From assembly GCA_016871615.1 (NCBI GenBank), contig VHCX01000005.1, positions 21,868 through 85,867 on the forward strand: a DNA stretch of 64,000 nt, read 5' to 3'. The notes beneath the pieces are model-generated. The model saw only the letters and a program-made list of their open reading frames with translations. It was not told where the DNA came from and did not search any database. Positions within the stretch are counted from its first letter, which is position 1; every line of letters starts with the position of its first letter. The position numbers and the translations under genes are program-made. This stretch comes from Verrucomicrobiota bacterium (lineage in GTDB: Bacteria; Verrucomicrobiota; Verrucomicrobiia; Limisphaerales; UBA9464). Positions 21,379 through 62,300 of the stretch are shown here, in pieces.

Positions 21379-23096
21379 TCAGCGCCCGGCGGCCTTGAGT
21401 GAGGCCTCGCGGGCCGCCCGGAACTCGCTGGACGGGTTCCAGCGGGGGGCGCGGCGGTCGTCGGCCAGGCGGCGGAGGATGTCGTGGTACAGGCGCAGGT
21501 CCTCGGCCGCGCCGGTGAGGTCCCAGCCGGGCTTCACCTCGTCGCTGACCTTGTGGTAGTCGCGCTCGATGTACTCGTTGACCTTCGACTCGCCGTACCC
21601 GGTGGGCTTGCCGAGGTACTCGTCGCCGGCCTTGAGGTACAATCCCGGCACGCCGCCCTTCATGAACTCGAAGTGGTCGCTGCGGTAGAACATGCCGCGC
21701 TCGGGATGGGCGTCAGGAAGCACCACCCGTCCCCGGGAGCGGGCGACGGCGTCGACCACCGCATCGACGGTCGAGGCGCCCCGGCCGATCTGACGGAGGT
21801 CCCGGGTCCGACCCCATCGACGGTCGAGGCGCCCCGGCCGATCTGACGGAGGTCCCGGGTCCGGCCCCAGGTGTTCATGCCGTCGATGTTGAGGTTGGCG
21901 ACCGTCCTGGCCAGCGGGTACACCGGCCGGGCCACGTAGTGCGCCGCGCCCAGGAGTCCCTGCTCCTCGGCCGTCACCGACAGGAAGAGCATCGAGCGCC
22001 GGGGCGCCCGCGCAGCCGTCCCGAATGCCTCGGCCAACTCGAGCAGACCCGCCGTGCCGATGGCATTGTCGGCGGCCCCGTTGAAGATCTGGTCGCCCTC
22101 GAGGCTCGCGTTCCGGCCCAGATGATCCCAGTGGGCGGTCACCACGACCCACTCGTCACGGAGCTTCGGATCGCGCCCCCGAACCACCCCGAGCACGTTC
22201 CTGGACTTCAACGGGCGGGACTCGTTGCGCGCCGTGAAGGCGGCCTTCTGCTTCAGGGTCACCGCGCGGAACCCGGGCCTCCGCGCCGCCTCCTTCATCG
22301 CCTCGTAGGTGGTGCCGTTGGCGGCGAAGAGTTTCCGGGCACGGTCCAGGTGCATCCAGCCGGCGATGGCGGTCTTGGGCGATCGATCGCTGGCGAGGTC
22401 GAAGCGCTCCCGCCCCCAGGAGTTGATGACCACGAACCACGGATACGCCGCCGGGGCCGTCTCGTGGATGATCAGGGCCGCGGCCGCACCCCGGCGGCCG
22501 GCCTCCTCGAACTTGTAGGTCCAGCGGCCGTAGTAGGTCATGGCCTTGCCGCCGAACCACTTCGGGTCGAGCTGGTCGGGACGCGCCGGGTCGGGGATCG
22601 GCGGGTCGTTGACGAGGACGACGAGGGTCTTGCCCCGAACGTCCACGTCGCGGAAGTCGTTCCAGCCGTATTCGGGGGCGTCGATGCCATAGCCCACGAA
22701 GACCACGTCGTTGTCCGGCACGGAGACCTCGACCCCGGGGCCCGGGCTCCAGGCCACGTAATCCTGCGGCCCCATCAGGTCCTCTCCGCCGAGGGTGAAT
22801 CCCACCGAGGACTTCACGCCCACGATCGGGACATCCTGCGTCCACGACCCGTCGGGCATCCCCGGCTGGAGACCGGCCCGACGGAACTGCTGGATGAGGT
22901 AGTCGATGGTCTTGGCCTCGCCCGGGGTGCCCGGACCGCGCCCCTCAAACTCGTCGCTGGCCAGCACCCCGGTGCGCTCGAGGAGGTCCTCCGGCCGGAT
23001 GGATCCGGCGCCCCGGGGTTCGGCGGCGAAGGCGAGGAGGGGCATCGCGGCCGCGAGCGCGGCGGCGATCCGTGGCACCCATGGGGTCGTGGGCAT
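21379..23096 (-). pseudogene. M28-family aminopeptidase (PA-domain containing), frame broken by a 53-bp tandem duplication
   Basis: Two overlapping ORFs (21660..23192 and 21379..22152) both read 'WGRTRDLRQIGRGASTVD'. The N-terminal part has a signal peptide, a PA-like insert, 'VVVTAHWDHLG', 'GA.DNA.G' and 'LF...T.EE.GLLG'. The C-terminal part has 'ERGMFYRSDHFEF'. The span is 1718 nt, and 1718-53=1665=3x555. Confidence 0.85.
21762..21867. repeat. Tandem direct duplication, 2 x 53 bp
   Basis: 21762-21814 and 21815-21867 are identical apart from one base (A at 21811, G at 21864). On the coding strand that is GGT versus GGC, both Gly. Two bp of junction microhomology (ca). Confidence 0.95.
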
Positions 23097-23380
23097 GACC
23101 TCGCCAATGGAATGCCAATCCATCCCGCAAGCAACCCTCCAACCAACCACCAGACACCCCGCTCGAACGGCCGCCAGTCGGGTGCGCGACACCCCGCCCC
23201 CGACGCACGAGACTTCCGGGATGGCACCTCGGTCGCAGGATCTGCAGGTTTGACAACCGCCGGGATCCCCCGCTCGTATTCGAAGCGCCCTCGGGATGTA
23301 TTTCGGATCTGCCGATCGGCCACGCCCCCGGACCTGATGGCGGCGGTGGGTGCGGGAGGAGTTGAACCGAGTTTCCGCCC

Positions 23381-24835
23381 ATGACCCCGGATTCCCACGA
23401 CGACGAACAACGCCTGCGCGAACTCGGCTACCGCCAGGAGCTGGCCCGGCGGATGGGCGGGTTCTCCAACTTCGCCATCTCGCTGGCCATCATCTGCATC
23501 CTGTCGGGCGGGATCACCTCGTTCCATGTCGGCTTCAACAGCGCAGGCGGCGCGAGCCTCGGGCTGGGCTGGCCGCTGGTGGGCCTCTTCTCGCTGTGCG
23601 TGGCGGCCACCATGGCCCAGGTGGCCAGCGCCTTCCCCACGGCGGGCGGGCTCTACCACTGGGGCAGCCTGCTGGGCGGACGGGCCTGCGGGTGGGTGAC
23701 GGCATGGTTCAACCTGGCAGGCCTCGTCACCGTGCTCGCGGCCATCAACACGGGCACCTACGACTTCGCCACCGCGGCCTTCGGGTGGACCCCGGCACCG
23801 GACTCCGCCAGCATGACCCGCGTCGTCGCCGTGTCGGCGATGACGCTGTCGCAGGCGCTGCTCAACCACCACGGGATCCGCTGGACCACCCGGCTCACCG
23901 ACTTCAGCGGGTGGCTCATCCTAGCGGTGTCGACGGTGATGACCGCAGCGTTGCTCGTGGCCACGCCGCACTGGGAGTGGTCGCGCCTGTGGACCTTCAC
24001 CAACTTCAGCGGATTGCCGGAGGGGGCGCCGGTGTTCCCCCGCCAGGAGTCGTTGCCGTGGCTCTTCTGCCTGGGATTCCTGCTGCCCGCCTACACCCTC
24101 ACGGGGTTCGACGCCTCGGCCCACACCTCGGAGGAGACCCGGGAGGCCGCGTGCAACGTGCCCCGGGGCATCGTCCGGTCGGTGGCCGTGTCGGCCGGAT
24201 TCGGCTGGGTGATGATCGTAGCCCTGCTGCTGGCCATGCCCGACCTGAAGGGCGGCGCGGCCAAGGGCTTCGAGATCGTGCCCTGGATCCTGCGATCGGC
24301 GCTGGGAGAACGCGTCGCGCAGGCGCTGCTCGTCGGCGTGGTGACGGCCCAATACCTCTGCGGACTGGCCGCGCTGACCTCGGCCTCGCGCATGACCTAC
24401 GCCTTCGCCCGGGACGACGGCCTGCCGGGCTCCGCCTGGCTCAAGTCGGTCGATCCGACCACGCAGTCGCCGTCGGCGGCCGTCTGGACCAGCGCCCTGG
24501 CCTCGGTGGCCCTGGTGGTGATGCTGCGCTACGAGACCATCGCCGCGGTGTGCGCGGTGTTCCTGTACCTCAGCTACGTGCTTCCGGTCGCGGCCGGGGC
24601 CTGGGCCCACGGTCGCACCTGGACCCGCTTCGGCCCCTTCCAACTGGGCTCGGCCTTCCGGCCCCTGGCCGTGCTGGCGGTTCTCGGATGCCTGTTCCTG
24701 CTGGTGATCGGTGTGCAACCGCCCAACCAGCAGGCCCTGCCCATCCTGGTCGGAAGCACGGCCTTGCTGGTGGCGGTCTGGTTCGGTCTCGAGCGCCGCC
24801 GCTTCAAGGGCCCACCGGGTGGTCGCCTGTCCTGA
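23381..24835 (+). CDS. APC-superfamily amino acid permease
   Basis: 'FSNFAISLAIICILSG', 'AQVASAFPTAGGLYHW' and about 12 hydrophobic segments; typical amino-acid/polyamine/organocation transporter layout. Confidence 0.88.
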   Translation: MTPDSHDDEQRLRELGYRQELARRMGGFSNFAISLAIICILSGGITSFHVGFNSAGGASLGLGWPLVGLFSLCVAATMAQVASAFPTAGGLYHWGSLLGGRACGWVTAWFNLAGLVTVLAAINTGTYDFATAAFGWTPAPDSASMTRVVAVSAMTLSQALLNHHGIRWTTRLTDFSGWLILAVSTVMTAALLVATPHWEWSRLWTFTNFSGLPEGAPVFPRQESLPWLFCLGFLLPAYTLTGFDASAHTSEETREAACNVPRGIVRSVAVSAGFGWVMIVALLLAMPDLKGGAAKGFEIVPWILRSALGERVAQALLVGVVTAQYLCGLAALTSASRMTYAFARDDGLPGSAWLKSVDPTTQSPSAAVWTSALASVALVVMLRYETIAAVCAVFLYLSYVLPVAAGAWAHGRTWTRFGPFQLGSAFRPLAVLAVLGCLFLLVIGVQPPNQQALPILVGSTALLVAVWFGLERRRFKGPPGGRLS

Positions 24836-24953
24836 ACGATGCCGTTGGATCGGTCGTGCTGGCTGAGAGCCCGGGGTCGAGGGCGCCAACCGAGCCCCCA
24901 GGGGCGATCCCGCGCGCGGAACGGTCCGGCGACCCATTTTTGGGCATTCCTTC

Positions 24954-26135: not shown

Positions 26136-26257
26136 CGGAGCCGGGGAACGGCACCGAGGGACCGGGCGGCGGATTGGACGGATGGGCCCAGCCGCTGGCC
26201 CATGGGGGTGGTCAAAACCATGGAATTTGTGCGGGAGGGAATTGGGGCCGGAGGGGG

Positions 26258-27142: not shown

Positions 27143-27200
27143 GGGGCCGTGGACGGGAAGGGCGATTCCAGAAGACAGAGGACAGGCCGTGAACCCCGGA

Positions 27201-29479: not shown

Positions 29480-30181
29480 TCAGGCGGCTTGGGGGCCGTC
29501 GCCGGGGGCCTCGAAGCGGTATCCCACCTGGGGCACTGTCTGGATGAGGCGGGGACGGTTGGGGTTCTCCTCGACCTTGGCACGCAGGGTCGTGACGGCA
29601 CGGTCCACGCTGCGGTCGGTCACGGCGGCCTCCGACCAGACCGCTTCCAGGATCTGTTCGCGGGTGAGGGCCCGACCGGCCTTGCGGGTGAAGAACTCGA
29701 GCAACCCGTACTCCTTGGGGGTCAGTTCGATCTCGACGCCGCCACGGCGGACCCGCCGCGCACCCCGGTCGATCTCCAGCGAGCCGATGCGCACGAGGTC
29801 GGGAAGCGCCCGGCGGTGTCGGCGGAGCAGCGCGGCCACGCGGGCCAGGAGTTCGCCGATGCCGAAGGGCTTGGTGACGTAGTCGTCAGCCCCGAGGTTC
29901 AGGCCCCGCACCACCTGGGCCTCCTCGCCCAGGGCCGTCAGCATGACCACCGGCATCTCGAGGCCGTCGGCCCGGAGCCGCCGGCAGATCTCGTGGCCCG
30001 AGAGGCCGGGCAGCAGCAGATCCAGCAGGATCAGGTCGGGCCTCAGGGTCCGGGCCTGCTCGAGGCCCTGACGGCCGTCGCCCGCCGAATGCACCCGGTA
30101 GCCGGCTCGCCGGAGGTTGTCGGTGAGGCCGAAGAGGATCGAGGCGTCGTCCTCGACCACGAGGATGAGTTCAGGCGTCAT
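29480..30181 (-). CDS. OmpR/PhoB-family two-component response regulator
   Basis: 'ILVVEDD', 'DLILLDLLLPGLSG', 'MLTA', 'GADDYVTKPF', and the winged-helix 'LTPKEYGLLEFF.......L.REQIL..VW', 'VGYRF'. The ATG overlaps the kinase stop (ATGA). Confidence 0.93.
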   Translation of the reverse strand: MTPELILVVEDDASILFGLTDNLRRAGYRVHSAGDGRQGLEQARTLRPDLILLDLLLPGLSGHEICRRLRADGLEMPVVMLTALGEEAQVVRGLNLGADDYVTKPFGIGELLARVAALLRRHRRALPDLVRIGSLEIDRGARRVRRGGVEIELTPKEYGLLEFFTRKAGRALTREQILEAVWSEAAVTDRSVDRAVTTLRAKVEENPNRPRLIQTVPQVGYRFEAPGDGPQAA

Positions 30182-32206
30182 CGGGAGGGTCGATTCTTGG
30201 GAGTCGGGCGGGCACCGGAGGGCCCAAGGGGACCGGGGGGTTCGTCGGGAACCGCCGGCACGACCAGGGCGAAGCGGCTGCCGCGGCCCGGGGTGGACTC
30301 CACCTCCACCTCGCCGCCGTGGGCCTCGACGATGGAGCGGACGATATGGAGGCCGAGGCCGGCGCCAGTGACCGTGCCCGCCGTACCACCCGGGCCGTCG
30401 AGCCGGTGGAACTTCCCGAAGATGTGGTCGCGCTGGGCCGGGTCGAAGCCGATCCCGTTGTCGGTGACCGAGAAGCGGACCCGCTCGCCGCACCGGTCGA
30501 CCGCCAGGACGATGCGCTTGTGGGGGCCCGTGTACTTGTGGGCGTTCTCGAGCAGGTTCAGGAGCGCGGTGGTGAGGGAGGGGGCGTCGGCGAGGACCCG
30601 GGGCAGACCGCCGGCGACCTCCGTGCGGAGGTCGCAGCCGGGGGCGGCGAAGCGGGGCCTGACGCTCCGGACCGCCACCTCGACCACGGTCTCGGGCGCG
30701 GTGGGCTGGAAGTCATAGGCCATGGCCCCGCGCTCCAGGCGGGCGAAGGTAAGGTAGTCGTCGACGAGGCGGCCGAGCCGGACCGTCTCGCCGGAGACGA
30801 CCTCCAGGTAGGCACGGGTGCGACCCGGCTCCGGTTCGGGATCAGCCACGAGGCTGTCGACCAGCATCCGGAGCCACGAGGCTGTCGACCAGCATCCGGA
30901 TGGAGGTCATGGGGGTGCGCAGCTCGTGGGAGATGGTGGTCAGGAAGTCATGGCGCACCTCGGCCAGACGGACCCGGCGCAGGAAGCGCTGGATGGCCAG
31001 GAAGGCCAGCACGGCCCCGAGCAGGGCGGCGCTTGCGGCCGAGCCCACCTGCAGCACGGCCTCGCGGCGGGCCGACCCGGCCCAGCGGGCCTCGGCGACC
31101 GAGGGATCCAGGCTCAGGGCCCATCCCGGGAGGCTGGCGCCGAGGGAGGCCGAAACCCCGGCGGCGCCGGCGTCCGGGCCACCGGCCACACCGCCGGCAG
31201 GGACGAGACGGGCCGCGTATCCGAGGGAACCCAGCTCGCGGTCAATCCGCTGCTCGAGGGCCGCGTGGAGCCGGTCGCGGCGGTGCAGCCAGGCCGCGCC
31301 GCCGCCCGGCGCGGGGAGCGACCACACCTGCCCCCGGGGTTCCGAGGCGTCGAACCGGAACAGGTGGCGCGTGGTCCGGAGGTCGGGACGCGCCAGGGCG
31401 GGCATCCCGACAAGGCTCTGGGACACGGCCACGCCGAGCGCCTCGGCCGGCTCCGTGGGCAGGGCCACCGGATGGCCGATGCGCCGCAGCTCCCGCGCCA
31501 GGTGGAGCCGCTGGCTGGCCGGCAACAGGGGCGCCCCGTGACCGGCGACCTGGCGGCCCAGGACCTCGACGGTGGGCAGGAACCTCGGATCATCGCGGGA
31601 CATCCGTTGCAGCGCGGCCCATCGGATGCCCGGCAGGTAGAGCCGACCGGACGGCGAGCGGCTGGCCTCCAGCCGCTGCTCCACCCACCGGGCGGCCAGG
31701 TCGAGGTAGGCGTCGGACATCGGCTGCGTGATGAGGCGCTGGTGGAAGTCGCCGATGAGGGCCTCGCCCCGGGCGTCCACCTCCGGGGGGTCAAGCCCAC
31801 CCGTGGCGGGCGCGGGATAGGCCGGGAGGCCGTCGGCATCGAGGACGAGCAGCCCGTCGGGAAGCTCCTCCGGGATGCGGCCGGCGGCCGCCGCGGCCAG
31901 CAGCGTGGCGAAGGCGACGCCCGACTCGGACGGGTCGACGGGCGGGAGCCGCCGACCAGCCCGCTCCGCCAGCACCCCGAGGTCCCGCTCCACGGTCCGG
32001 ACCGCCTGCTCCACCCGGAGCCGGTGCAGGGCCTGCCGGGCCCGGGGGCCATCCCTCCGGTCGCGATCCCATCCGCGGAGCGTCGTCCACAGCAGCAGCG
32101 CCGCCGGCAGGGCGACGGCCAGGCCGATGGCCGCGAGGGACAACAGGAGTTCCCCCCGCGGTCTCAGGCGCAGCGCGGGCAGGCTTGGGAGGAGTCGATC
32201 CGGCAC
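30178..32206 (-). pseudogene. Sensor histidine kinase (two TM segments plus a large periplasmic domain), frame broken by a 28-bp tandem duplication just after the H-box
   Basis: The upstream ORF ends '...FLTTISHELRTPMTSIRMLVDSLVA|PDAG..'. The downstream ORF begins 'MLVDSLVADPEPEP...' and carries HATPase motifs ('LLENAHKYT', 'DNGIGF', 'GAGLGL'). GTG 32206 is preceded by GGGAGA at a 9-nt spacing. The span is 2029 nt, and 2029-28=2001=3x667. Confidence 0.85.
30844..30899. repeat. Tandem direct duplication, 2 x 28 bp (perfect)
   Basis: 30844-30871 and 30872-30899 are both 'agccacgaggctgtcgaccagcatccgg'. The next base (30900, a) extends the match by 1. Confidence 0.97.
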
Positions 32207-35139: not shown

Positions 35140-36651
35140 TCAGAAGGCGATCCCCCAGCGGCGGCGGGCGAAGCCGTGGGCGACCGGCTTCACCTCGGCC
35201 AGCCGGGCACGCCAGTCGTCGCCACCGAAGCGCTTCTCGAAGGCGCGCACGTCCCGCTCGTACTCGGCCATCAGGCGCGCCTTGGCAGGCTCCTCGAGGA
35301 AGGACCACTTCAGCGAATCGCGCCCACAGCGGAGGAGCTCCTCCCAGGTCAGCTGGAACTCGGTGACGGCCGTGAAGTACTCGTCGGTCATGCCGGAGTC
35401 CCACATGCCCGAATCGTCGGTGGAGAGCCCGCAGGGCACCCCCAGGCGGAGCATCTCGGGGAAATGGTGCTGGGAGTAGTCGCCCACGTACTCCAGCAGG
35501 AGGTTGCTCACGAGATTGATCTCCATGAAGGCCAGGCCGTGTCGGAGGTGCAGCACGAGGTCGTCGTCGGTCAGCACGTTGTTGCCGTGGCCCAGCCGGG
35601 TCGCGCCGAGCATCAGCGTGTCGCGCAGGTGGGCGTTGGGCTCGTCCACCTCGCCGGCGTGGATCGACAGGCCGATGCCGGAGTGGCGGTGGCGCATGCG
35701 CCGGTACACGTCGAGGAAGCGCCGCGGGTGGCCTTTGTCGTTGTCCTCGCGGCCGGCCATGTTGACGCCCACCCAGAGGTCGCGGTGGCCGGCCACCCAG
35801 TCGTGGGCCTCCTCCACGCGACGGACGGCGTTGGGCGTGAAGCGCAGCACCACGTACTGCAGGCGCAGGGTGACGCCGGTGGCCAGAGCATCCGGCCGCG
35901 CGAGCCGCCGGCGGAGGATCCGCTCGCCCTCCTCGGGGTCGAGCATCGTGCCGTCGGGGGCGCCGAAGAGGTCGGGGATGGTCTGGGCCTCGATGTAGCG
36001 GACACCCTCGGCCCCGTAGCGGCGGAGGGTGCGGACGGTCATCTCGGCCATCAGGTGCGGATCGCGTCCGAGCGCGCCGAGCCGCGGCCAGATCCTCTCG
36101 AAGAACTCCTCGCGCCCCTCGCCCGGCCGGTCCAGGCGCAGGGAATCCATCCACTCGCGGGCCTGGGCGGGCGACAGGGCGTCGAGGGCCGTGTAGTCGG
36201 CCCTGCGGCAGGCGTCCATGGCGCCCCACTGGACGGCCGAGAGGGTCGCGAACCGGACCCAGTCGTTGGTGTCCCCGTCGCACCCGCCCGCGCGGAGCCG
36301 GGTGTAGAACCGGTTGGTTCCCACGATCGAGCGGTCGGTCGCCACCGCATACAGGTCCTCCATGCGCCAACAGCCCGCCGCATGGTGGTGCAGGTCGCCG
36401 CCCTTGGGCACGGCGTAGAGCAGGCGGTACAGGTCGGGCTTGGAGAGGGTCCGACGGAGTTCCCCAAACCGGTCGCCGAAGCCCTCGGCCAGCGCCGACG
36501 GCGGCAGGCCGGCGACGAGGGCCAAGGCCAGGGCCGTTCCGAGGGACAGGAGGCCATGGAACAGCGACGGGGCCCGGCCCGGCCGGGGGCCGGGGAGCCG
36601 ACGGGTCGGTCGATGGGTCGGTCGATGGGAGAAGGTCGGGCGGCGGGTCAT
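35140..36651 (-). CDS. Exported adenosine/adenine deaminase family protein (ADGF/CECR1-like long form)
   Basis: Signal peptide 'LLSLGTALALALVAGLPPSALA'. Metal ligands 'GGDLHHHAAG', 'SIHAGE' and 'LSTDDSGM'. The ATG overlaps the stop of the upstream NUP gene (ATGA). Confidence 0.8.
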   Translation of the reverse strand: MTRRPTFSHRPTHRPTRRLPGPRPGRAPSLFHGLLSLGTALALALVAGLPPSALAEGFGDRFGELRRTLSKPDLYRLLYAVPKGGDLHHHAAGCWRMEDLYAVATDRSIVGTNRFYTRLRAGGCDGDTNDWVRFATLSAVQWGAMDACRRADYTALDALSPAQAREWMDSLRLDRPGEGREEFFERIWPRLGALGRDPHLMAEMTVRTLRRYGAEGVRYIEAQTIPDLFGAPDGTMLDPEEGERILRRRLARPDALATGVTLRLQYVVLRFTPNAVRRVEEAHDWVAGHRDLWVGVNMAGREDNDKGHPRRFLDVYRRMRHRHSGIGLSIHAGEVDEPNAHLRDTLMLGATRLGHGNNVLTDDDLVLHLRHGLAFMEINLVSNLLLEYVGDYSQHHFPEMLRLGVPCGLSTDDSGMWDSGMTDEYFTAVTEFQLTWEELLRCGRDSLKWSFLEEPAKARLMAEYERDVRAFEKRFGGDDWRARLAEVKPVAHGFARRRWGIAF

Positions 36652-37816
36652 GGGGTGAGGGAACCGGGGATGCGGTCGGCGTGGAGAGACCAATGGTCGA
36701 CCAGTTCTCGGACCACCCGGCTGCCGACCCGATGGGCGGCCTCGAGGCTGGGAAGGTAGGCCGAGAACTTGCCGCTGTTCTCCTCGACGAGGTTCTCGGC
36801 GGCGGTCCGTCCGGGCGGCTGCATGTCGAAATTGCTGGCCGTGCGCAACACCAGCACGCGCCGGAGGTCCACGCTGCCATCCTGGCCGAGGAAGGTCAGG
36901 GCCTGCAGCGTGCCGCTGTCCTCCATGGCCGTGGTGACGTAGTTGCCGCGTCCCCCGGTCCAGTAGCGGGTCCAGTCGTTGGCCCACTGGTTCATGAGGC
37001 GACCGTGCCAGAAGGTCGAGGCGCTCAGGTTGTCGCCCTTCAGGACCGAGGGCGACAGGCGGGCCTTGGGATGCCCGGTGTACCGCATGCGGTTCTGGAT
37101 CATCACGTCGGTCTCCGGCAGCGGCGTGTCCCGGGTGAGCCGGTAGGCCCAGTCCACCAGGCCGGGGTCGAGGGTGAACAGCACCTCGCCCACGCGGTTC
37201 CTGCGGGGCTCCTCATAGGGCCGGGACTGGCTCAGGGGCACGTACCCGGTGGGCCAGTCGGCGGGCATCTCCCGCGGGTCGATCTCGTGGGCGAGGTCGC
37301 CGTCGACGACATGCTCGGCCCAGGCGGCGCTGCCGAGGGTGCCGTCGGCCGGGTCGATGCCGGCGATGCCGGCGGTGATCCAGTAGGCCTTGCGGAAGTC
37401 GAAGCGCGGATCCCGAGCCAGCGCGGCGATGACGGCCGCCGACCGCGCGATGCCGCCGCCGGTGCAGACGCCCACGACCCCGTCGTCGCGGTAGCGCACC
37501 GGACGGAAGGTCCCCGGGACGGCCACCTTCCGCCCGAGCCGCTCCCGCTCGACCCAGAACTGGAACTCACCGGGCCGGTCCCCGGTGTCCTCAACTCACC
37601 GGGCCGGTCGCCGGTGTCCTCGCCGATCTCGAAGAGGGTCACGATGACCACCTTGACGGGCAGAGGCGAGGCGCGGCCCGGCAGCATGGGACCGGCGGCC
37701 GGGGTCCCGCGCCGGGTGGAACACCCCGCCACGAGCAGGGCGATCAGGAGCACCCGCACGATCGGCCGCAGGGAGACCGACGGCAGGATGAAATCGCAGG
37801 GAACCGGGGAGGTCAT
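36648..37816 (-). pseudogene. NUP-family 'purine nucleoside permease' lipoprotein, frame broken by a 29-bp tandem duplication
   Basis: The N-terminal piece 'MTSP...LLIALLVAGCS' (lipobox) '...VKVVIVTLFEIGEDTGDRPGE' is in one frame. The remainder, 'AVPGTFRPVRYRDDGVVGVCTGGG...WITAGIAGIDP...', is in ORF 36648..37526. The span is 1169 nt, and 1169-29=1140=3x380. Confidence 0.8.
37564..37621. repeat. Tandem direct duplication, 2 x 29 bp
   Basis: 37564-37592 is 'aactcaccgggccggtcCccggtgtcctc' and 37593-37621 is 'aactcaccgggccggtcGccggtgtcctc'. The single mismatch is synonymous on the coding strand (GGG versus GGC, Gly). Confidence 0.95.
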
Positions 37817-37932
37817 GGGGAGATCCGGGGTGGGGACGACAGGGGCCACTGCGGGGCGAAAAGGGGCGGCGACCCGAAGGTGCGCCGCCCCTGTGGAGCC
37901 CGGGTCCCGGCCATTGGCCGGGGCATTCGGGA

Positions 37933-43922: not shown

Positions 43923-44729
43923 TCAGAACCGGGTGTCCGGCTTCTTGAGGTTCAGCTCGCGGATCCAGATGTTGCGGTAGCGCACATCGTGGCCCTCGTT
44001 CTGCAGCTTGAGACCGCCGGGCGTGTCGGTGATGCCCTTGCCGCCGTCGTTGCCGCCGTCGATCCCGGAATTGGGGCCGCCCCAGACCTGCTGGATGGTC
44101 ACGTTGGTGTGGACCAGTTGGCCGTTGAAGTACACCGAGACCAGGGGCTTCTCGACGAGCTTGCCGTCCTTGAAGCGGGCGGCTCGGAAGGTGATGTCGT
44201 AGGCGTTCCACTTGCCGGTGCCGTTGTAGGCGTGGTAAGGCGAGGGCGTCTCGTTGATCACCGCGGCCATCCCGTGCGGGGTCTTGTCGCCGTCGAGCAC
44301 CTGGATCTCGTAGCGGTTCTGCAGGTACACGCCGCTGTTGCCGTTGGGCTTGGCCACCCGGAACTCCACATGCACGCGGCAGTCGCGAAACTCCTGGAGG
44401 GTGACCAGGTCGGACGTGCCGAACTTGCCCCCGTCACCCGCCCGGTCGTCGGTCATCATGACCGTGCCGCCGTCGACGGGATCGTCGACGATGGGCCACT
44501 TGACCGGCAGGGACGACTTGAAGCCCGGCCCCTTCCAGTAGGTCCACTTCGAGTGGAGCATCTCCTTGGATCCGTTGAAGAGCACCTGGGCCCCCTTCTC
44601 GGGCTTGGCCCCCACGCCGATGTGGGGCGATGGGGAGGCCGCACGGGCCGCGGGGAGGGCGGCGATCGAGACGGCGAGGGCGGCGGCGGCGGCGGCAGCA
44701 ACGGCAGCGAGGGGCTTCCGGGAGTTCAT
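43923..44729 (-). CDS. DUF1080 (3-keto-disaccharide hydrolase family) exported protein
   Basis: Signal peptide 'AAAAAAALAVSIAALPAARA'. 'LFNG...' 'F.D..V..EFR.......NSGVYL..RYE.QVLD' and 'L.LQ..G..V.YRNIWI.EL'. The start is ATG 44729, with 44753 as the alternative. Confidence 0.8.
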   Translation of the reverse strand: MNSRKPLAAVAAAAAAALAVSIAALPAARAASPSPHIGVGAKPEKGAQVLFNGSKEMLHSKWTYWKGPGFKSSLPVKWPIVDDPVDGGTVMMTDDRAGDGGKFGTSDLVTLQEFRDCRVHVEFRVAKPNGNSGVYLQNRYEIQVLDGDKTPHGMAAVINETPSPYHAYNGTGKWNAYDITFRAARFKDGKLVEKPLVSVYFNGQLVHTNVTIQQVWGGPNSGIDGGNDGGKGITDTPGGLKLQNEGHDVRYRNIWIRELNLKKPDTRF

Positions 44730-48391: not shown

Positions 48392-49915
48392 TCAGCGGGG
48401 GAACCGTTCGGCCAGCGAGACGGCCTTCCGCATGGCCTTGGACTTGTTGACCGTCTCCTCGAACTCGGCCTCGGGATCGGAGTCGTTCACCCAGCCGCCA
48501 CCGGCCTGCACGTGGGCCATGCCGTCCTTCACCAGCGCGGTGCGGATGGTGATGCAGTGGTCGGCGTTGCCGTTGAAGCCGAAGTAGCCCACGCACCCGC
48601 CGTAGGGCCCGCGGGTAGTGCCCTCCAGCTCGGAGATGATCTGCATGGCCCGGATCTTCGGGGCGCCGCTCAGGGTGCCCGCCGGGAAGGTGGTGCGCAT
48701 CAGGTCGAAGGCGCTGCGGCCGTCCGAGAGCCGCCCGTTGACCTGCGACACGATGTGCATCACGTGGCTGTAGCGCTCGATGACCATGAGGTCGCGCACG
48801 GCCACCGTGCCGTAGTCGCAGACCCGTCCGATGTCATTGCGGGCGAGGTCCACGAGCATGACGTGTTCGGCGCGCTCCTTGGGGTCGGCCAGCAGCTCCT
48901 TCTCCAGGGCCAGGTCCTCGGCCTCGCTGGCCCCGCGGCGTCGCGTGCCGGCGATGGGGCGGATCTCCACGGCGCGGTCCTCGCAGCGCACATGCAGCTC
49001 GGGCGAGGCCCCGACCAGCGCGAAACCCTCCAGCTCCAGCAGGAACATGTAGGGTGACGGGTTGATCGAGCGGACCGCCCGGTAGATCTCCATGGGCGAG
49101 GCCTTCACCGGGGCGCTGAAGCGCTGGGAGCCCACCGCCTGGATGATGTCGCCCGAACGGATGAACTGCTGGGAACGGGCCACGTTGGCCAGGAACTGCC
49201 CGCGCGGGGTGTTGGAGACGAAGGGGGCGTCGGGAGCCTGCGGCTCGAGGGTCACCGCCGGGCTCTCCAGCGGCTGCTCGAGCAGGGCCACCAGCCGGTC
49301 GATCTCGGAGACCGCATCGTCGTAGGCGGCTTCCGGGTCGCCACCGTCGGGCACCACGGCGTGGACGATGACCGTCAGGGTCTGGGCCACGCGGTCGAAG
49401 ACGAGCACCTGGTCGGCGATGAGGAAGTACAGCGTCGGGGTGCCCAGCTCATCCTTGGGAGGACGCGGGACCACCGGTTCCACATCGTGGATGAACTCGT
49501 AGCCGATGAAGCCCACCGCGCCGCCGGTGAAGCGCGGCATGCCCGGGACGGGCACCGGGACGAATCCCGACAGCACCGACTCCACCACCGCGAGCCCGTC
49601 GCGCACGACCTTCTCGCCCGGCCCGCACGGCTGGGGGGAGACGCGGTACGCATCGACCACACGGCCCTGTTCGAGGACCTCCACCCGGTCGGCGGTCTGG
49701 CGGATCACCGACCGCGGACCGCAGCCCACGAAGGAATAGCGGCCCAGGTGCTCGCCGCCCTCGACCGACTCGAAGAGGAACGACTCGCCCTGTCCGCGAA
49801 GCTTCCGGTAGGCGGACAGTGGGGTTTCGAAGTCCGCGAGCAGGCGGCGGGCGACCGGGATGCAGTTGCCCCGGCGGGCCAGCGCCGCGAACTCTTCTCG
49901 GGTCGGCGTGTCCAT
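48392..49915 (-). CDS. trpE: Anthranilate synthase component I
   Basis: 'LADFETPLSAYRKL......FLFESVEGGE..GRYSF.G', 'GAVGF.GYE', 'PSPYMF', 'RGPYGG.VGYF' and 'IRT'. ATG 49915 is preferred over the ORF-track GTG 49927. Confidence 0.93.
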   Translation of the reverse strand: MDTPTREEFAALARRGNCIPVARRLLADFETPLSAYRKLRGQGESFLFESVEGGEHLGRYSFVGCGPRSVIRQTADRVEVLEQGRVVDAYRVSPQPCGPGEKVVRDGLAVVESVLSGFVPVPVPGMPRFTGGAVGFIGYEFIHDVEPVVPRPPKDELGTPTLYFLIADQVLVFDRVAQTLTVIVHAVVPDGGDPEAAYDDAVSEIDRLVALLEQPLESPAVTLEPQAPDAPFVSNTPRGQFLANVARSQQFIRSGDIIQAVGSQRFSAPVKASPMEIYRAVRSINPSPYMFLLELEGFALVGASPELHVRCEDRAVEIRPIAGTRRRGASEAEDLALEKELLADPKERAEHVMLVDLARNDIGRVCDYGTVAVRDLMVIERYSHVMHIVSQVNGRLSDGRSAFDLMRTTFPAGTLSGAPKIRAMQIISELEGTTRGPYGGCVGYFGFNGNADHCITIRTALVKDGMAHVQAGGGWVNDSDPEAEFEETVNKSKAMRKAVSLAERFPR

Positions 49916-53512: not shown

Positions 53513-53688
53513 CGCCCCCCGGGTCAACGAGGGATTTTCCGGCGATCCCCCCGGGGGGCCGGGGGAGGAACCGGGCAGGAACCGGGCAGGAACCGGGGAG
53601 TGGCCGGGCCGGCGGGGCGACCCGCGACGAGCGGTTCGACCCGCCGGCCGCGCGATTTCCGGGATTGCGAAACGGGCGCGCCGCCCCG

Positions 53689-55399: not shown

Positions 55400-55460
55400 C
55401 ACTCCGCAGGAAACGTGAACCGCCTCCCGCAGCCGCATCCTCGTTCCCGTTCCCCTCCAT

Positions 55461-55636: not shown

Positions 55637-56116
55637 GTGCCGTTTTCAAGACTCAGTCGAACCACCGATGCCGCCGTCGGTTACTTCGAGTTGGGAATGA
55701 TCGAGGCGGCGCTCCAGGAGCTGGACAAACTTCCCCCGGCCGAGCAGTTGGAGCCGGAGGTGCTCGAGCTGCGTTCGGTGATCCACCAGCACACCGGCCG
55801 TTGGTCCGAGGCGGCCCAAGCCTTCGGGGCCCTGTGCGCCCGCCGCGACGCCGAGCTCGAGCATTTCATCGGCTGGGGATGCTGCCTGTATGAACTCGGG
55901 GCCCATGAGGAGGCTCGGGCGGCGCTGCTCTCGGCCCCGGAAACGCTCCGACAGAACGGCCTCTGGCATTACCATCTCGCCTGCTACGAGGCGCTCACCG
56001 GTCGGGCGGTGGCGGCGCGGGAGCGGATCGACCGGGCCCTCCGGCTCGATCCCTGCCTCCAGCGCATGGCCGAGCAGAACTCCAACCTCGCCCCCCTGCT
56101 GCGCGGGGCCGCCTGA
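55637..56116 (+). CDS. Small TPR-like repeat protein
   Basis: Helical-hairpin pattern ('GRWSEAAQAF..L', 'LYELGAHEEARAAL', 'LACYEALTGRAVAARERIDRALRLDP'). The start is uncertain: GTG 55637 or ATG 55697. Confidence 0.55.
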   Translation: MPFSRLSRTTDAAVGYFELGMIEAALQELDKLPPAEQLEPEVLELRSVIHQHTGRWSEAAQAFGALCARRDAELEHFIGWGCCLYELGAHEEARAALLSAPETLRQNGLWHYHLACYEALTGRAVAARERIDRALRLDPCLQRMAEQNSNLAPLLRGAA

Positions 56117-56145
56117 CGGGCCGGGACGGTCGTCCGGGGGAGCGC

Positions 56146-57282
56146 TCAACCCGCCGGACGACGGGCGCACGCCGGCTCGCCAGACCGGACCGGACCGAGG
56201 TAGTCGTAGAGCGGGGCGTCGAGCCCCCGGCCAGGCCAAGCTGTCTGGTCGAGCGCCCCGTGCACGATGCCATCCAGCAGGGCCTCGACGAAAAGGCCCT
56301 CGGCCTCGAAGACCAGCAGGTCGGTCGGAGACACCAGCCCGGAGGCCGTTGCCAGGCAGTCGAGGCAGGCCGCCCGCGCCATCTGCCGGATCCTCCGGAG
56401 CTGGTCCGACTCGGTCTCGCAGCGTCGGTGCAGCACCACGACCGGACGGGGCGACGCGGTGAGCTGCTGGAAGGGCCCGTGCGCGAACTGGAGCAGTTCC
56501 TGGAGGGCGGGTGCCGGACGGAAGAGGCCCTCCACGAACTTGTAGACGACATTCTGCAGGTACTCGCTCAGGTCCGGCGAGGCCAGCAGCACGAAGCCCC
56601 GGCTGAAGGCCGCACCGTCCATCCGGGGCCACGCCTCGTGGCCGGCGTCCCGGCCGGCCCGGAACGCCCGGGCCGCCTCGATCCCCAGCGACCGGGGATC
56701 GCCGCAGAAATCCCCCGGCCTGGCGAAGCTGCCGGCCCACAACCGCGCGGCGAGGAACCCGAGGGCCGGGCCGACCACCCGGATCAGGATCGTGTACTCG
56801 TCCTCGAGGGGGAAACGGATGATCTCGACCGTGTCGTCGCGCTCGAGCAGTTCGAGGCATTCGAGCCGCTCGGTCCTGCCGGAGCGCCGAAGACCCTCGG
56901 CCGTGGCCGAGGTGAAGAGCACCGTGGAGTCGAACCCTGCCCGGTGACCGAAGGCAATGCGCCCCGCCGCCGACAGGCCTTGGCTGAAGACCACCAGGGT
57001 GCGGTCCCGGAACCGCGCCGGGTCGACGGGTTCCACAAGCGCCCCGGTCGGCAGGAATTCGGCGGGGATGTCGGTGAAGCGGTTGAGGAACCAGACCAGG
57101 TAGCGGGCATGGGCCTCGGAACTGCCCAGCCCCGTGGCCACGACCCGGCGGGGCCTCAGGCGGGGTCGCGCCGCGAGCTTCGCCTCGTCCGAGGCACCCC
57201 AGCTCTCCAGGAGCCCGGGAATGGATCGCATCCGCTCGCGCAACAGGCGGATGCCACTGTCAGGGGAACCGTCGGACGGCAT
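56146..57282 (-). CDS. SIS-domain (sugar isomerase/aminotransferase-like) protein
   Basis: 'RVVATGLGSSEAHARYLVWF' (SIS Gly-Ser loop), 'LVVFSQGLS', and a second SIS-like half. The substrate is unknown. Confidence 0.55.
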   Translation of the reverse strand: MPSDGSPDSGIRLLRERMRSIPGLLESWGASDEAKLAARPRLRPRRVVATGLGSSEAHARYLVWFLNRFTDIPAEFLPTGALVEPVDPARFRDRTLVVFSQGLSAAGRIAFGHRAGFDSTVLFTSATAEGLRRSGRTERLECLELLERDDTVEIIRFPLEDEYTILIRVVGPALGFLAARLWAGSFARPGDFCGDPRSLGIEAARAFRAGRDAGHEAWPRMDGAAFSRGFVLLASPDLSEYLQNVVYKFVEGLFRPAPALQELLQFAHGPFQQLTASPRPVVVLHRRCETESDQLRRIRQMARAACLDCLATASGLVSPTDLLVFEAEGLFVEALLDGIVHGALDQTAWPGRGLDAPLYDYLGPVRSGEPACARRPAG

Positions 57283-57354
57283 GCCCTTGGCCTACGCCGA
57301 CATGGGCCGGAATGCAATGCGGCGAAGGGGTCGCCCATCGGGTGGGGCCACCGC

Positions 57355-58914
57355 TCACTCGGCGCCCGGTAGGCCCCCGGGGACCAACCCGGGCACGGGT
57401 CGTTCCGGGACCTCGGAGGGCCGCGACGTCCCGGAAGGGGTCGACCGGAGGGCTTGGGTCGACGGGGCGGGGGCGGCCGCGGGGGCGACGTTGGTCAGGC
57501 CGGCGGCGGACGTCACGACCGATGCCCCCGGAGGCGTCGGCGCCTCGACGCGGACCGGCAACCCGGGCCAGGCCATCCGCCGCAGCAGGTCGGCGTTCCA
57601 GTTGGCCAGGCGGAAGCAGCCGTGGCTTTCCGTGCGACCGACCTCCTCGGGCCGGGGCGTGCCATGGATCCCGTAGCCCGGCCGGTTCAGGCCGATCCAC
57701 GCGACGCCCACGGGATTGTTCGGCCCCGGCGGCAGCCTGAGCTTCCGCCCGACGCTGCGGGCCTCCAGGGATTCCGGGAAGACCTCCGGATCCCACGTGT
57801 AGTCGGGATTGGGCACGGTCACCACCACCTGAAGCTCCCCGACCGGGCGCTTCTCGACCCGCCGGGCGATGCTGCAGGGGAAGTGGGCCATCAACTCCCC
57901 GGCGGCATCGTACACCCGGAGAAACCGTCCCCCAAGATGGATGCGGATCAGGGCCGCGCGGCGGGCGGCGACCTGGGACGGGGACGGCATGACGAGGTCC
58001 TGCGCCTCGGCGACCCGTTCCCAGTCCAGCCCGGGGTTGAGGCGGCGAAGCCACGCCGGGTGGGCCTGGAACCGCTCGGCCAACCGCTCGAGCAGGGACT
58101 CGTGGTCGAGGGCGGCCGCCTGCGACTTGCCCACCCACGAATCAGGGACCGGGCCGAGCCCGAGCAGGTCCTCGGCGCGCACGCGGTAGGTCGCCAGCGG
58201 CGCCCGCCGCAGGACCAGGGCCCTGCGGGTCTCCCGGTCGAGCGCCCCGGTCGGCTCCAGCCCCTTGCGGGTCTGGAAGGCCCTCAGGGCCGCCGCGGTC
58301 TGCGCGCCGCCCACCCCGTCGATCGAACCTGGCGAGAGGCCCAGGCCCGCGAGGGCGATCTGGGCCTCGAGCAGGTTTGTGGGGCCGCGGGGCACCCAGC
58401 CCGCCGGGGCGTTCGACACCGCGGCCATCGGCACCGGGACGGGGACCACGGTCCCGGGGGCCAGGGTCATCACCGGCACCGGGACGCGGAAGACCTGGGT
58501 CGAGAGGACGACCGGCGGGGCCGAGGTCACCGCGACGACCGGCGGGGCGGGGGCATTGGACCGCGGCAGGACCGGGACGAGCGCGTTCGACGTCACGACC
58601 GGCCGGGAAGGATCCCGGGGACCGACCGGCGATGGCACGGACCCCGGCGGGGCATTGGAGGGCCCGGCGGGGCGAACGACCGTCGATGGCACCGGGCGGG
58701 ACGTGTCCACCGGGGACATCCGCCACCCTCGGAGGAAGGCCCAGACGAGACCCGCGAGCAGCGCCAGGAGGAACAGCATCGGCGCGACGGCACGACGGCG
58801 TGCCGGCGGTCTTGCCCGCGGTCTTGCCGGAGGATGGCTGAAGGGGGAGCGCACGGGGTGGAGTCTGGGGGGGGGCAGGCGGTCCCGAGGCGGTCCCGGG
58901 GACCCGTCAGACAT
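57355..58914 (-). CDS. L,D-transpeptidase (YkuD domain) with a peptidoglycan-binding domain, membrane anchored
   Basis: TM 'MLFLLALLAGLVWAFL', a Pro/Val-rich spacer, PG_binding_1-like 'GSIDGVGGAQTAAALRAFQ...GL..TG.LD..T' and the YkuD catalytic 'GIHGT...E.VGR.ESHGCFRL'. The start (ATG 58914) overlaps the upstream stop by 8 nt. Confidence 0.85.
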   Translation of the reverse strand: MSDGSPGPPRDRLPPPRLHPVRSPFSHPPARPRARPPARRRAVAPMLFLLALLAGLVWAFLRGWRMSPVDTSRPVPSTVVRPAGPSNAPPGSVPSPVGPRDPSRPVVTSNALVPVLPRSNAPAPPVVAVTSAPPVVLSTQVFRVPVPVMTLAPGTVVPVPVPMAAVSNAPAGWVPRGPTNLLEAQIALAGLGLSPGSIDGVGGAQTAAALRAFQTRKGLEPTGALDRETRRALVLRRAPLATYRVRAEDLLGLGPVPDSWVGKSQAAALDHESLLERLAERFQAHPAWLRRLNPGLDWERVAEAQDLVMPSPSQVAARRAALIRIHLGGRFLRVYDAAGELMAHFPCSIARRVEKRPVGELQVVVTVPNPDYTWDPEVFPESLEARSVGRKLRLPPGPNNPVGVAWIGLNRPGYGIHGTPRPEEVGRTESHGCFRLANWNADLLRRMAWPGLPVRVEAPTPPGASVVTSAAGLTNVAPAAAPAPSTQALRSTPSGTSRPSEVPERPVPGLVPGGLPGAE

Positions 58915-59362
58915 CGATCCAGGGACCCCCGTCATCGTCCCCGCGACGGGCGCGGCGACGGGATCGCCCCGGCCCCCCGGGGTCGCCGCCGGGGCGTACC
59001 ACGGCACCGCGCCCGAGGAATCCGTTCACCACCAGCGACACGAGGCTGATGATCACCCCGCCCCAGAAGGCGGCGCCAAAGCCCTCCACGACAAATCCCG
59101 GCTGGAGCAGGCCACCCACCAGGCCCAGGAGCACCGCGTTGATGACCAGCACGAAGAGCCCCAGGCTGAAGATCAGCAGCGGCAGCGACAGGACCATGAG
59201 CAGCGGACGCACGAAGGCGTTGAGCAGGCCGAGCAGCAGCGAGGCCTCGAGCAGGGACCCGAAGGACTGGTGGCGGATGCCGTCCACCCAGACGTCGGCC
59301 AGCAGCACGCCGAGGGTCGTCACCAGCCAGCGCTGCAGGAACTTGAGCACACCTTCCGGCAT
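58907..59362 (-). CDS. Four-TM 'phage holin family 4' (PF04020-like, YvlD-type) membrane protein
   Basis: 'LLGLLNAFVRPLLMVLSLPLLIFSLGLFVLVINAVLL' with four hydrophobic helices and a basic C-terminal tail. There is no phage context. Confidence 0.75.
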   Translation of the reverse strand: MPEGVLKFLQRWLVTTLGVLLADVWVDGIRHQSFGSLLEASLLLGLLNAFVRPLLMVLSLPLLIFSLGLFVLVINAVLLGLVGGLLQPGFVVEGFGAAFWGGVIISLVSLVVNGFLGRGAVVRPGGDPGGPGRSRRRARRGDDDGGPWIDV

Positions 59363-59395
59363 GGAGTTGATCCTAGTCCACGGTTGCCGGCCGCG

Positions 59396-62300
59396 TCAGT
59401 CGGCTTTCTTGGACGGGCCGCCCGGGGCGTCCTTTCCAGCCAGCGACAGGAGCAGCCGCCGGATCTCCGCCAGCCGGCCCTTGGCGTCGGGCTGGGTCAG
59501 CCTCGGGAACCGCCCGCCTACCGTGACCAACTCCCCGCGCTGCAGGAGCTTCACCTTGCCCTCGGTCACCTCCACCGAGGCGACCCCGCACTCGGCGGCG
59601 AGCACCCGCAGCTCATGCACCCGGAGCAGCAGGTCCACCGGCCCGGGCAGCGGCCCGAAGCGGTCCCGCAGCTCTTGCCGCAGGCCCTCGACGCCGGCCT
59701 TGTCGCCCACCTGGGCTAGACGCCGGTGCACCTCGACGCGCTGCGCCGGCTCGCGGACGTAGTCGAGCGGCAGGTAGGCCGGGAACCGTCGGCCGTCGTC
59801 CCCCGGCTCGTCGTCCCGGCCGGTGTCGGAGCCGCTCCAGGAGGTCGCCACGCCTTCGTCCCTCGGGATCTCGATGCGCTGGCCGGCCCGCCCGGCCTTG
59901 CCGGGCCGGTGCCTCGGGGCCGCGGTCTCCGGGTCGGCCTCCTGGCCCGGATGGGTGGCCAGGAAATCGAGCGAGACACGGACCTCGACCCGGGGCCGGA
60001 CCCGCTCGCCCTTGAGGGCGGAGATGCTCTGGCCCAGGAGCTGGCAGTAGAGGTCGAAGCCCACCGCCGTGATGTGCCCGCTCTGCTGCGGGCCCAGCAG
60101 GTTGCCCGCGCCGCGGATCTCCAGGTCGCGCATGGCGATCTTGAAGCCGCTGCCCAGCGCGCTGTACTGCTTGATGGCGCTCATGCGCTTGCGCGCCTCG
60201 GTGAGCAGCTGGGCGTGCCGGGGCAGCATGAGGTAGCAGTAGGCCTGGTGCTTGTATCGGCCCACCCGGCCCCGGAGCTGGTACAGCTCGCTCAGGCCGA
60301 AGCGGTCGGCCCGGTCGATGATCATCGTGTTGGCGTTGGGGATGTCCAAGCCGCTCTCGATGATGGTGGTGCTCACCAGCACGTCGGCCTCGCCGTCGAC
60401 GAAGCGGGTCATCACCGCCTCGAGCTCGTCGTCGCCCATCTGGCCGTGGCCCACCACGACCTGGGCCTCCGGCACGAGGGCCTTCAGCTTGAGTGCCAAG
60501 CGGGTCATCACCGCCTCGAGCTCGTCGTCGCCCATCTGGCCGTGGCCCACCACGACCTGGGCCTCCGGCACGAGGGCCTTCAGCTTGAGTGCCATCAACT
60601 CGATGGTGGAGACGCGGTTGTGCAGGAAGTACACTTGGCCGCCCCGGTTGAGCTCGCGCTGGATGGCATCACGCACGACCCGCTCGTCGTAGTTGCCGAC
60701 GACCGTCTCCACCGGCAGGCGGTCCTGCGGCGGCGTCTCGAGCGTGCTCAGGTCGCGGGCCCCGGTAAGGGCCAGGTAGAGCGTGCGCGGGATCGGCGTG
60801 GCGCTCAGGGTCAGCACGTCGACCGTGCGCCGCAGCAGCTTGAAGCGCTCCTTGTGCTTCACGCCGAACTTCTGCTCCTCGTCGACGACGACCAGGCCGA
60901 GGTCCTTGAAGACCATGTCCGCCGACACGATGCGGTGGGTGCCGATGACGATGTCCACCGCGCCGACGGCCGCCGCCTCCATCACCGCCTTCTGCTGGCG
61001 GGCCGTCCGGAAACGGCTCATCAGTTCGATGCGCACCGGGTACTCGGCCATGCGCTCGCGGAAGTGGTGGTAGTGCTGCTGGGCCAGCACGGTGGTGGGC
61101 ACGAGCAGCGCCACCTGCTTGCCGCCCATCACCGCCTTGAAGGCGGCCCGGATGGCCACCTCGGTCTTGCCGAAGCCGACGTCGCCGCAGACCAGTCGGT
61201 CCATCGGGCGGGCCAGCTCCATGTCGGCCTTGGCCGCCGCGATGGCACGGACCTGGTCGGGGGTCTCCTCGAACTCGAAGCTCGCCTCGAATTCCCGCTG
61301 CCACGGCGTGTCGGTGGAGAAGGCGTGGCCGGGCTGGGTGGTCCGGGCCGCCTGCACCGCCAGGAGGTCGGCGGCGAGGTCCCGCACGGAGCGCTGGGCC
61401 TGCTCCTTGGCCTTGGTCCAGCGGGTGCCGCCGATGGTGCTGAGCTGCGGCCGCGCCTTGCCCGCGCCCACGTACTTGCTCACGAGGTGCGCCTCGGTGA
61501 CCGGCACGTGCAGCCGGGGTGCCTCGTCATGGGCCGAGCCCGCGGCGTACTCGATCACCAGGCATTCCTGCCCCCCGCCCCCGCCGCCGGCCCCCCGGGG
61601 CGCCAGGGTCTGAAGGCCCCGGTAGATCCCGACGCCGTGCTGGAGGTGCACCACGAAGTCGCCGGGCTCGAAGTCGGTGAAGTCGACATCGAAGGCGTTG
61701 CGCACCGAGGCGGCCTGGTGCGACTTGAGCCGCCGCGGACGCGACACCTTGTAGCGGCCGTAGATCTCGGCGTCCGAGACGACCACGGTGCGCGCCGCCT
61801 CGCACAGGAACCCCCGCGACAGCGTGCCGGTGACCACCTCCGGCCGCGCGGCCGTCCCGGGGTCCGCGGGCAGCAGCTCGGTCCACAGCTCGCCGAAGCG
61901 CTGGACCTCGCCAGCGTTGTTGCAGAAGACCTGAAGGCAGTGTCCCTGGCGCAGCCAGCGCTGCATCTGCTGGAAGAAGGCCCGGCGCTGCGCCTCGGCG
62001 ACCTGGGCCGCCGGCAGGGTCGCGCCGATGGGCCGGAACGCGTCGAGCGACTCGAACCTCGGGCCAGCTGGTCCGTCGTCGGGATCGGACACCCCGTCCT
62101 CGAGGCGGATCCACGCCACGCCCGAGGCCTGCGCCCGGAGCTGCAAGGCCTCCCACGGCTCATGGAGCGGGTCGCCCTCCCGGACCTGGGAGGCGTGGTG
62201 GGCGGCCTGCAGGGCCAGGGCCTCCGGACCGCAGAGCACCACCAGCGCGTCGGGCCCCCAGTGGGCGTCGAGGGCGGAAACCGGGGGCGGCGGCGGCGCC

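Follow-up and report, generated by a model that had tools for sequence, protein, structure and literature searches.

Scaffold joins that retain the overlapping flanks of the joined pieces are a type of local assembly error already on record: Ns are placed between the pieces despite the overlap, and the duplicate sequence must be removed (PMC7111523). Overlap-unaware scaffolding that fragments or duplicates features has been noted for other scaffolders as well (PMC8352505). The present analysis concerns a stretch of 64,000 nucleotides from a metagenome-assembled genome (MAG) of a Verrucomicrobiota bacterium (assembly GCA_016871615.1, contig VHCX01000005.1, positions 21,868 to 85,867), referred to below as the window. 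It carries five short head-to-tail tandem duplications inside minus-strand genes for an M28 peptidase, a sensor histidine kinase, a lipoprotein of the NUP (purine nucleoside permease) family, a TonB-dependent receptor and Mfd, as well as a sixth, shorter duplication in an intergenic region. Comparison with independent assemblies of the same population leads us to conclude, with high confidence, that these duplications arose where assembled pieces with overlapping ends were joined at strain-variation breakpoints and the overlap was retained, and that they are not reversible knock-outs.

The duplications resemble the local assembly error described by Chen et al. in that a short adjacent duplicate, smaller than the read length or the k-mer size (k), lies at a join and breaks reading frames, and in that the affected genomes derive from metagenomes with co-existing strains. 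They differ from it in having no Ns between the copies; furthermore, that error was reported for IDBA-UD and CLC, whereas the contig studied here was most likely produced by metaSPAdes. Strain-heterogeneity chimeras in MAGs, consensus contigs that alternate between co-existing haplotypes, provide a second parallel, as the window is a mosaic in which the haplotype switches at two of the joins. Ordinary haplotype switching, however, leaves the length of the sequence unchanged, whereas each join in the window keeps 11-108 bp twice. In their arrangement the duplications also recall the products of slipped-strand or microhomology-mediated duplication, being head-to-tail, tens of base pairs long, coding, mostly frame-breaking and reverted when exactly one copy is lost. 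Reversible loss-of-function mutations are known to include short tandem duplications; real slippage events begin with identical copies, occur singly and together with the usual point divergence and deletions, and are found in the reads of several assemblies. None of these traits is displayed by the six duplications of the window. Finally, tandem repetition in or near genes is shared with variable-number tandem repeats (VNTRs) and contingency loci. The copy number of VNTRs varies among strains, whereas the units described here are single-copy in all other population contigs, and the five gene sites are uninterrupted in related species.

Tandem duplications in the window

Repeats were detected using Tandem Repeats Finder, an exact period scan (12-1200 bp) and base-by-base extraction. 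The duplications are as follows, those within genes being numbered as joins.

21762-21867, in the minus-strand M28 peptidase gene: join 1, 53-bp unit in two copies with one A/G mismatch (21811 versus 21864); match run of 55
30844-30899, in the minus-strand sensor histidine kinase gene: join 2, 28-bp unit in two perfect copies; match run of 29
37564-37621, in the minus-strand NUP gene: join 3, 29-bp unit in two copies with one C/G mismatch (37581 versus 37610); match run of 29
38277-38484, in the minus-strand TonB receptor gene: join 4, 104-bp unit in two perfect copies, matching for 4 bp more, to 38488; match run of 108
60402-60593, in the minus-strand mfd gene: join 5, 96-bp unit in two perfect copies, in frame; match run of 97
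58877-58898, intergenic: sixth private duplication, 11-bp unit AGGCGGTCCCG in two copies, adjoined at 58867 by a poly-G change from 8 to 9

A previous sequence-only reading of the window had reported five head-to-tail duplications, three of them perfect and two with a single mismatch that is synonymous on the coding strand (Gly codons). All of this was confirmed by Tandem Repeats Finder, the period scan and base-by-base extraction, and the base-by-base realignment, which had been named beforehand as a refuting test, found the copies to be adjacent and identical or nearly so. The count itself has to be amended: all five are present as described, but the sixth duplication of the same kind at 58877-58898 had been overlooked. 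The sixth site (58867-58898) is situated between a holin-like gene (58907-59362) and a YkuD-domain gene (57355-58779) and looks like the same kind of join as the other five. No further repeats resembling the five were detected in the 64-kb window by the period scan (12-1200 bp).

In 64 kb, exact repeats that directly adjoin each other over 28 bp or more cannot be due to chance. In agreement with what had been noticed from the letters alone, no motif is common to the units (longest shared k-mer ≤8), and the microhomology at the junctions is confined to 0-4 bp (2, 1, 0, 4 and 1 bp for the 53-, 28-, 29-, 104- and 96-bp units, respectively), which is close to chance expectation at 70% G+C. Two further points had been raised, namely that all five duplications hit minus-strand genes and that two of them hit adjacent genes of one operon. 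The positions hold, but given that ~64% of the region is minus-strand coding (counted by hand from gene tables) the strand bias is not significant (p ~0.11), and the clustering in the operon does not stand up statistically either; the TonB receptor and NUP sites are 0.8 kb apart, and their proximity calls for no particular explanation. The window is composed of A, C, G and T only, with no Ns between the copies, and the gene products predicted by IMG and NCBI read through the junction without interruption. The novel junctions may be exemplified by GGCGTAGAAGTTGCGGTTG followed directly by GGCTTCCCGGGGGCACCAGCG, and by the junction 40-mer at the 104-bp site, GGCGTAGAAGTTGCGGTTGGGCTTCCCGGGGGCACCAGCG.

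Independent assemblies and haplotype content of the copies

Contigs from the same population were reached through intact neighbouring proteins and aligned to the window by blastn, to which they are 99.5-99.97% identical. They originate from Joint Genome Institute (JGI) metaSPAdes assemblies of 18 Lake Tanganyika samples, from one 88.7-kb ENA contig assembled with MEGAHIT (k141) and from several Logan contigs of single runs. The IMG identifiers of the Lake Tanganyika series, which comprises 24 metagenomes, are listed in PMC8245535, according to which 2x150 bp reads were assembled at JGI with metaSPAdes 3.12. The number of distinct contigs with a single copy is 8 for the 53-bp unit, 12 for the 28-bp unit, 10 for the 29-bp unit, 11 for the 104-bp unit and 7 for the 96-bp unit; the duplicated state of the five sites was found in none of these 7-12 distinct contigs per site, and the 11-bp duplication at 58877-58898 in none of the ten contigs covering that position. 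In the blastn alignments each site appears as a plain insertion of one unit in the window, and removal of one unit renders the sequences collinear. The gene calls in the independent contigs are full length throughout (M28 peptidase, 563 aa; kinase, 666 aa; NUP, 379 aa; TonB receptor, 768 aa; Mfd, 1164 aa).

Orthologues of the five proteins in related freshwater Verrucomicrobiota MAGs (63-89% identity at the amino acid level) are uninterrupted across the sites. Alignment of orthologous loci from relatives had been proposed as a check in the sequence-only reading, and it revealed a single copy and no doubled segments. Relatives at ≤75% identity were among the matches listed in a scan of genome contigs for the neighbouring protease. 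Other searches yielded weak nulls. The 104-bp junction had no match in a metagenome contig collection that evidently lacks the Lake Tanganyika assemblies, and a gapped pattern allowing for one or two 29-bp copies retrieved one unrelated single-copy contig from a collection with the same evident gap. The duplicated Mfd peptide and the out-of-frame tail of the TonB receptor found no carrier in protein searches that covered cluster representatives only and missed the known carrier. A plasmid search with mfd returned distant homologues only.

The duplications might be real and common in the population and have been collapsed in the other assemblies, since short-read assemblers can collapse tandem repeats with a unit larger than k, and the 96- and 104-bp units exceed both the Logan k of 31 and the smaller metaSPAdes k values. 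We consider the probability of this to be next to negligible. Unbroken contigs that have one copy at the 96-bp and at the 104-bp site were produced by MEGAHIT at k=141, which would resolve the 104-bp duplication, and by metaSPAdes at k=127; the 28- and 29-bp units are smaller than every final k used, including that of Logan, which would resolve them, and yet they are single-copy everywhere. Moreover, contigs should be interrupted at a collapsed unit, but no such interruptions are observed, and the orthologues of other species are uninterrupted.

True length polymorphisms are also found among the population contigs. The 11-bp repeat GGGCAGGAACC at 53562-53597 has an extra unit in one contig (L004). 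The other length differences, at 44659, 44679-44696 and 49809-49829, comprise a 12-bp insertion (L007), a (GGC)n tract that is 6 bp shorter (L016) and a deletion of ~18-21 bp (L009). These natural polymorphisms show real local copy-number variation, in contrast to the six joins.

While the three perfect duplications carry no information on the haplotypes of their copies, the mismatch within the 29-bp duplication coincides with a natural biallelic single-nucleotide polymorphism (SNP) of the population, C being found in three and G in seven contigs, all of which are single-copy. C is linked to A at position 37503 and G to G at that position in 10/10 contigs. The order encountered in the window is A at 37503 in the left flank, copy 1 with C and copy 2 with G. 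At the 53-bp site, copy 1 constitutes the end of a longer tract:

21709-21816: divergent strain haplotype patch of 108 bp, ending exactly at join 1, with seven window-private SNPs

These SNPs (21709, 21715, 21718, 21720, 21730, 21763 and 21811) have alleles that the eight contigs lack. In the M28 peptidase gene each of the seven is synonymous, six of them affecting third codon positions and the remaining one representing a CTT/TTG leucine pair, and for this reason the patch is taken to be a real strain haplotype and not an error. Copy 2 has the common allele, and from there onward the window follows the common haplotype. Comparison of the window-private haplotype alleles with related species was uninformative. 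A mutation arising after duplication would hit the population allele by chance with a probability of ~1% at the 29-bp site and ~0.6% at the 53-bp site. The unit of the 28-bp site, if shifted by one base, is directly preceded by a private SNP (A at 30844); 12-13 bp to the left, at 30831-30832, there is a tri-allelic population site.

The window as a whole combines population alleles in a mosaic that none of the independent contigs matches over its full length, and the haplotype of the window switches exactly at two of the joins. Judging from the sequences compared, each duplication is best read as what would be the junction of two overlapping assembled pieces, with the start of the second placed directly behind the end of the first. 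Different natural haplotypes in the copies of the 29-bp and 53-bp duplications would also be accounted for by unequal or illegitimate recombination within the cell between co-existing strains, for instance after natural transformation, with each copy contributed by one parent. Such hybrid duplications are, however, extremely improbable, as five or six rare independent events would be required in 39 kb, with none in the neighbouring 21.7 kb or in other samples. The foreign tract at 21709-21816, at 108 bp, is shorter than one 150-bp read, which fits the tip of a contig better, and there is no further trace of imported DNA. The broader proposition that the duplications are real in one Lake Tanganyika sub-lineage and arose by repeated unequal or illegitimate exchange between strains, each copy keeping a different parental haplotype, is likewise highly improbable. 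If true, it would amount to an undescribed 'hyper-duplication' mutational mode producing clustered and potentially reversible knock-outs, of which the disrupted helicase domain of Mfd would be a possible cause.

Away from the joins, one private SNP (3487) and no private deletion were found in 64 kb, alongside the six private tandem duplications. The remaining differences between the window and the contigs are alleles present in at least one contig and, the joins excepted, the window represents an ordinary consensus of the population. This spectrum bears on the second explanation offered in the sequence-only reading, according to which genuine slippage or microhomology duplications act as reversible knock-outs. 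In a sub-lineage dominating one sample, they would have inactivated four genes and altered Mfd, possibly reversibly. It is true that the duplications of the deposited contig are present in both IMG and NCBI, that all units are smaller than 127 bp, so that they could in principle have entered a k=127 graph by way of real reads, and that microhomology of 0-4 bp is compatible with illegitimate recombination. Nevertheless, we regard this origin as very unlikely: the duplications are absent from 7-12 contigs per site, covering 18 samples and three assemblers, their copies differ exactly at pre-existing population alleles that are phased with the flanks, and six duplications against one private SNP and zero deletions make an unnatural spectrum. 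At such a density, disrupted genes would number in the hundreds in each genome of a lineage that is practically free of point divergence. The allele content, the absence elsewhere and the mutation spectrum thus leave the slippage explanation unsupported.

Strain-variable sites and probable mode of assembly

For four of the five gene sites, a SNP segregating in the other contigs was found no more than 25 bp away; by chance, four or more of the five would be this close with a probability of ~0.005 (computed by hand from per-site probabilities). Population SNPs were found at 38254, 23 bp to the left of the 104-bp site, at 60386 and 60392, and within the 96-bp unit (60494/60590). The fifth site (53-bp) bears the private haplotype, whereas the sixth adjoins the poly-G run, and neighbouring contigs (L023 and L024) have other single-G indels near 58867-58898. 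The ends of independent contigs tend to fall around 22.0-22.5 kb and 60.1-60.6 kb (several at 60137-60641), which indicates that these two regions fragment assemblies. The other explanation put forward from the sequence alone, unmerged contig-end overlaps or strain-haplotype joins, is therefore strongly supported: the duplications are absent elsewhere, the copies of both imperfect ones differ in natural haplotype, and the sites are variable.

With regard to the mechanism, the 95,256-bp scaffold to which the window belongs probably came out of the JGI metaSPAdes workflow applied to one Lake Tanganyika sample. At six places in the window, between 21.7 and 60.6 kb, co-existing strains differ from one another, and the assembly graph probably broke there. 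The pieces flanking each break would still share 11-108 bp, which is less than 127 bp and would leave them with no common graph node; a later paired-end or gap-closing step could then have abutted the pieces with the overlap unrecognised. Pieces stemming from different strain haplotypes would give copies that differ at a natural SNP. The JGI workflow runs metaSPAdes at k=33, 55, 77, 99 and 127, and all six retained overlaps (11, 28-29, 29, 53-55, 96-97 and 104-108 bp) are below 127. Since overlaps of this size share no 127-mer, the edges would be joinable only by a later step. It was probably this workflow that built the contig, which is likely to have been derived from the JGI Lake Tanganyika assemblies, IMG holding a copy with gene calls of its own.

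Several considerations weigh against an origin by retained overlaps. That the junctions lack read support is inferred. There are no Ns between the copies, unlike in the published error type; the joins without Ns would stem from a step in metaSPAdes or in later processing. Two of the overlaps are perfect, and at 97 and 108 bp they should have been merged by any joiner that takes overlaps into account. The lengths of the overlaps do not correspond to any one k-mer size. Finally, the JGI Lake Tanganyika origin of the contig is likely rather than certain.

Further origins were rejected. A fixed overlap of k or k-1 is not compatible with periods of 53, 28, 29, 104, 96 and 11 bp and runs of 55, 29, 29, 108 and 97 bp, which fit no one k. 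Planted duplications or duplications by random error are ruled out by the natural, synonymous and phased alleles seen in the inter-copy differences and in the private patch. Target-site duplication or an excision footprint of a transposon does not apply either, as the 28-104 bp units are directly adjacent with nothing between them; of all the units, the 11-bp one alone has a size typical of such repeats (2-14 bp), and it is without an element.

Affected genes, public records and neighbouring loci

The five genes and their products are as follows.

21379-23123 (including the extra copy), minus strand: M28 peptidase gene; the frameshift results in products of 487 and 257 aa, intact protein 563 aa
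30178-32206, minus strand: sensor histidine kinase gene; as deposited it stops after 454 aa, intact protein 666 aa
36648-37816, minus strand: NUP lipoprotein gene; stops after 194 aa, intact protein 379 aa
37933-40343, minus strand: TonB-dependent receptor gene; frameshifted product of 766 aa (38043-40343) with an out-of-frame tail of 112 aa, intact protein 768 aa
59396-62986, minus strand: mfd; in-frame insertion of 32 aa in the Helicase_C domain (aa 799-862), intact protein 1164 aa

Deletion of either copy produces a single open frame at each of the five genes, and Pfam domains run uninterrupted across the sites in the repaired proteins: Peptidase_M28; HisKA and HATPase_c; NUP; Plug and the TonB barrel; and, in Mfd, UvrB_inter, CarD_TRCF_RID, DEAD, Helicase_C and TRCF. 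The claim that removal of one copy restores a continuous frame in every gene is hence borne out. As for the restored lengths, 2001, 1140 and 2307 nt agree with ours, whereas 1665 and 3573 nt become 1692 and 3495 nt, because the start codons differ in the independent gene calls used here. It is also correct that four of the five duplications break the frame (those in the M28 peptidase, kinase, NUP and TonB receptor genes), the insertion in Mfd being in frame. All five proteins are almost certainly intact in the living organism, with one copy of the unit per site. The biological picture accordingly changes little, in that the purine-nucleoside uptake cluster, the two-component kinase, the M28 peptidase and Mfd are to be treated as intact.

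Disrupted products have nevertheless entered the public records, and the artefact is already found in nr as apparently normal protein entries. By exact-sequence look-up, the frameshifted TonB product is MBM3848997.1 ('MAG: TonB-dependent receptor [Verrucomicrobia bacterium]', 766 aa). The M28 fragments are MBM3848987.1 and MBM3848986.1, both labelled 'M28 family peptidase', and the C-terminal fragment of the kinase (30178-30867) is MBM3848993.1, a 229-aa 'HAMP domain-containing histidine kinase'. In a collection of 15 billion proteins, the frameshifted products occur on one contig only, that of 95,256 bp in NCBI and IMG, and never in Logan or ENA. The IMG copy of this contig has its own, different gene calls, such as a 104-aa M28 tail; as these include disrupted products, the duplications were already in the copy annotated by IMG.

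The presence of six joins in 39 kb suggests that the rest of the genome, and possibly other scaffolds of the same run, carry many more, which would inflate pseudogene counts and distort metabolic reconstructions. An automatic quality check of MAGs could look for perfect short tandem duplications that break a conserved gene at a strain-variable site, with copies bearing different population alleles and a length below the assembly k.

The TonB receptor gene, the NUP lipoprotein gene and an adenosine deaminase gene (35140-36651, overlapping the NUP gene by 4 bp) make up a conserved minus-strand cluster at 35140-40343, and the adjacency of the receptor and NUP genes is also kept in related Verrucomicrobiota MAGs (L049 and L051). 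It is plausible that this cluster represents an outer-membrane-to-periplasm module for the uptake and salvage of purine nucleosides.

Several other proteins encoded in the window have little annotation. A 1443-aa protein without a Pfam domain (17008-21339; MBM3848985.1, hypothetical) is full length in many population contigs. Precomputed Pfam hits are lacking for a 452-aa protein encoded just upstream of the kinase and for a 378-aa protein (56146-57282), the latter being assigned by some sources to the creatinine amidohydrolase/creatininase family.

Contig ends shared among assemblies also occur elsewhere. Contigs assembled independently from two JGI samples, and likewise the ENA MEGAHIT contig, begin exactly at 4077, and two further ones begin at 3394 and 3571, in or next to a short-chain dehydrogenase gene; the window passes this shared breakpoint (3394-4077) without a duplication. 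At least nine independent contigs end at 22428-22512, four of them, from Logan, exactly at 22428. Some contigs display dense SNP clusters at 21993-22065, 22265-22427 and 24220-24458, in the genes for the M28 peptidase and the adjacent amino-acid permease (17 SNPs in 73 bp, for instance, in L046 and L047, nine in L037 and ~10 in L041, L042 and L045). These clusters look like short recombination tracts between co-existing strains.

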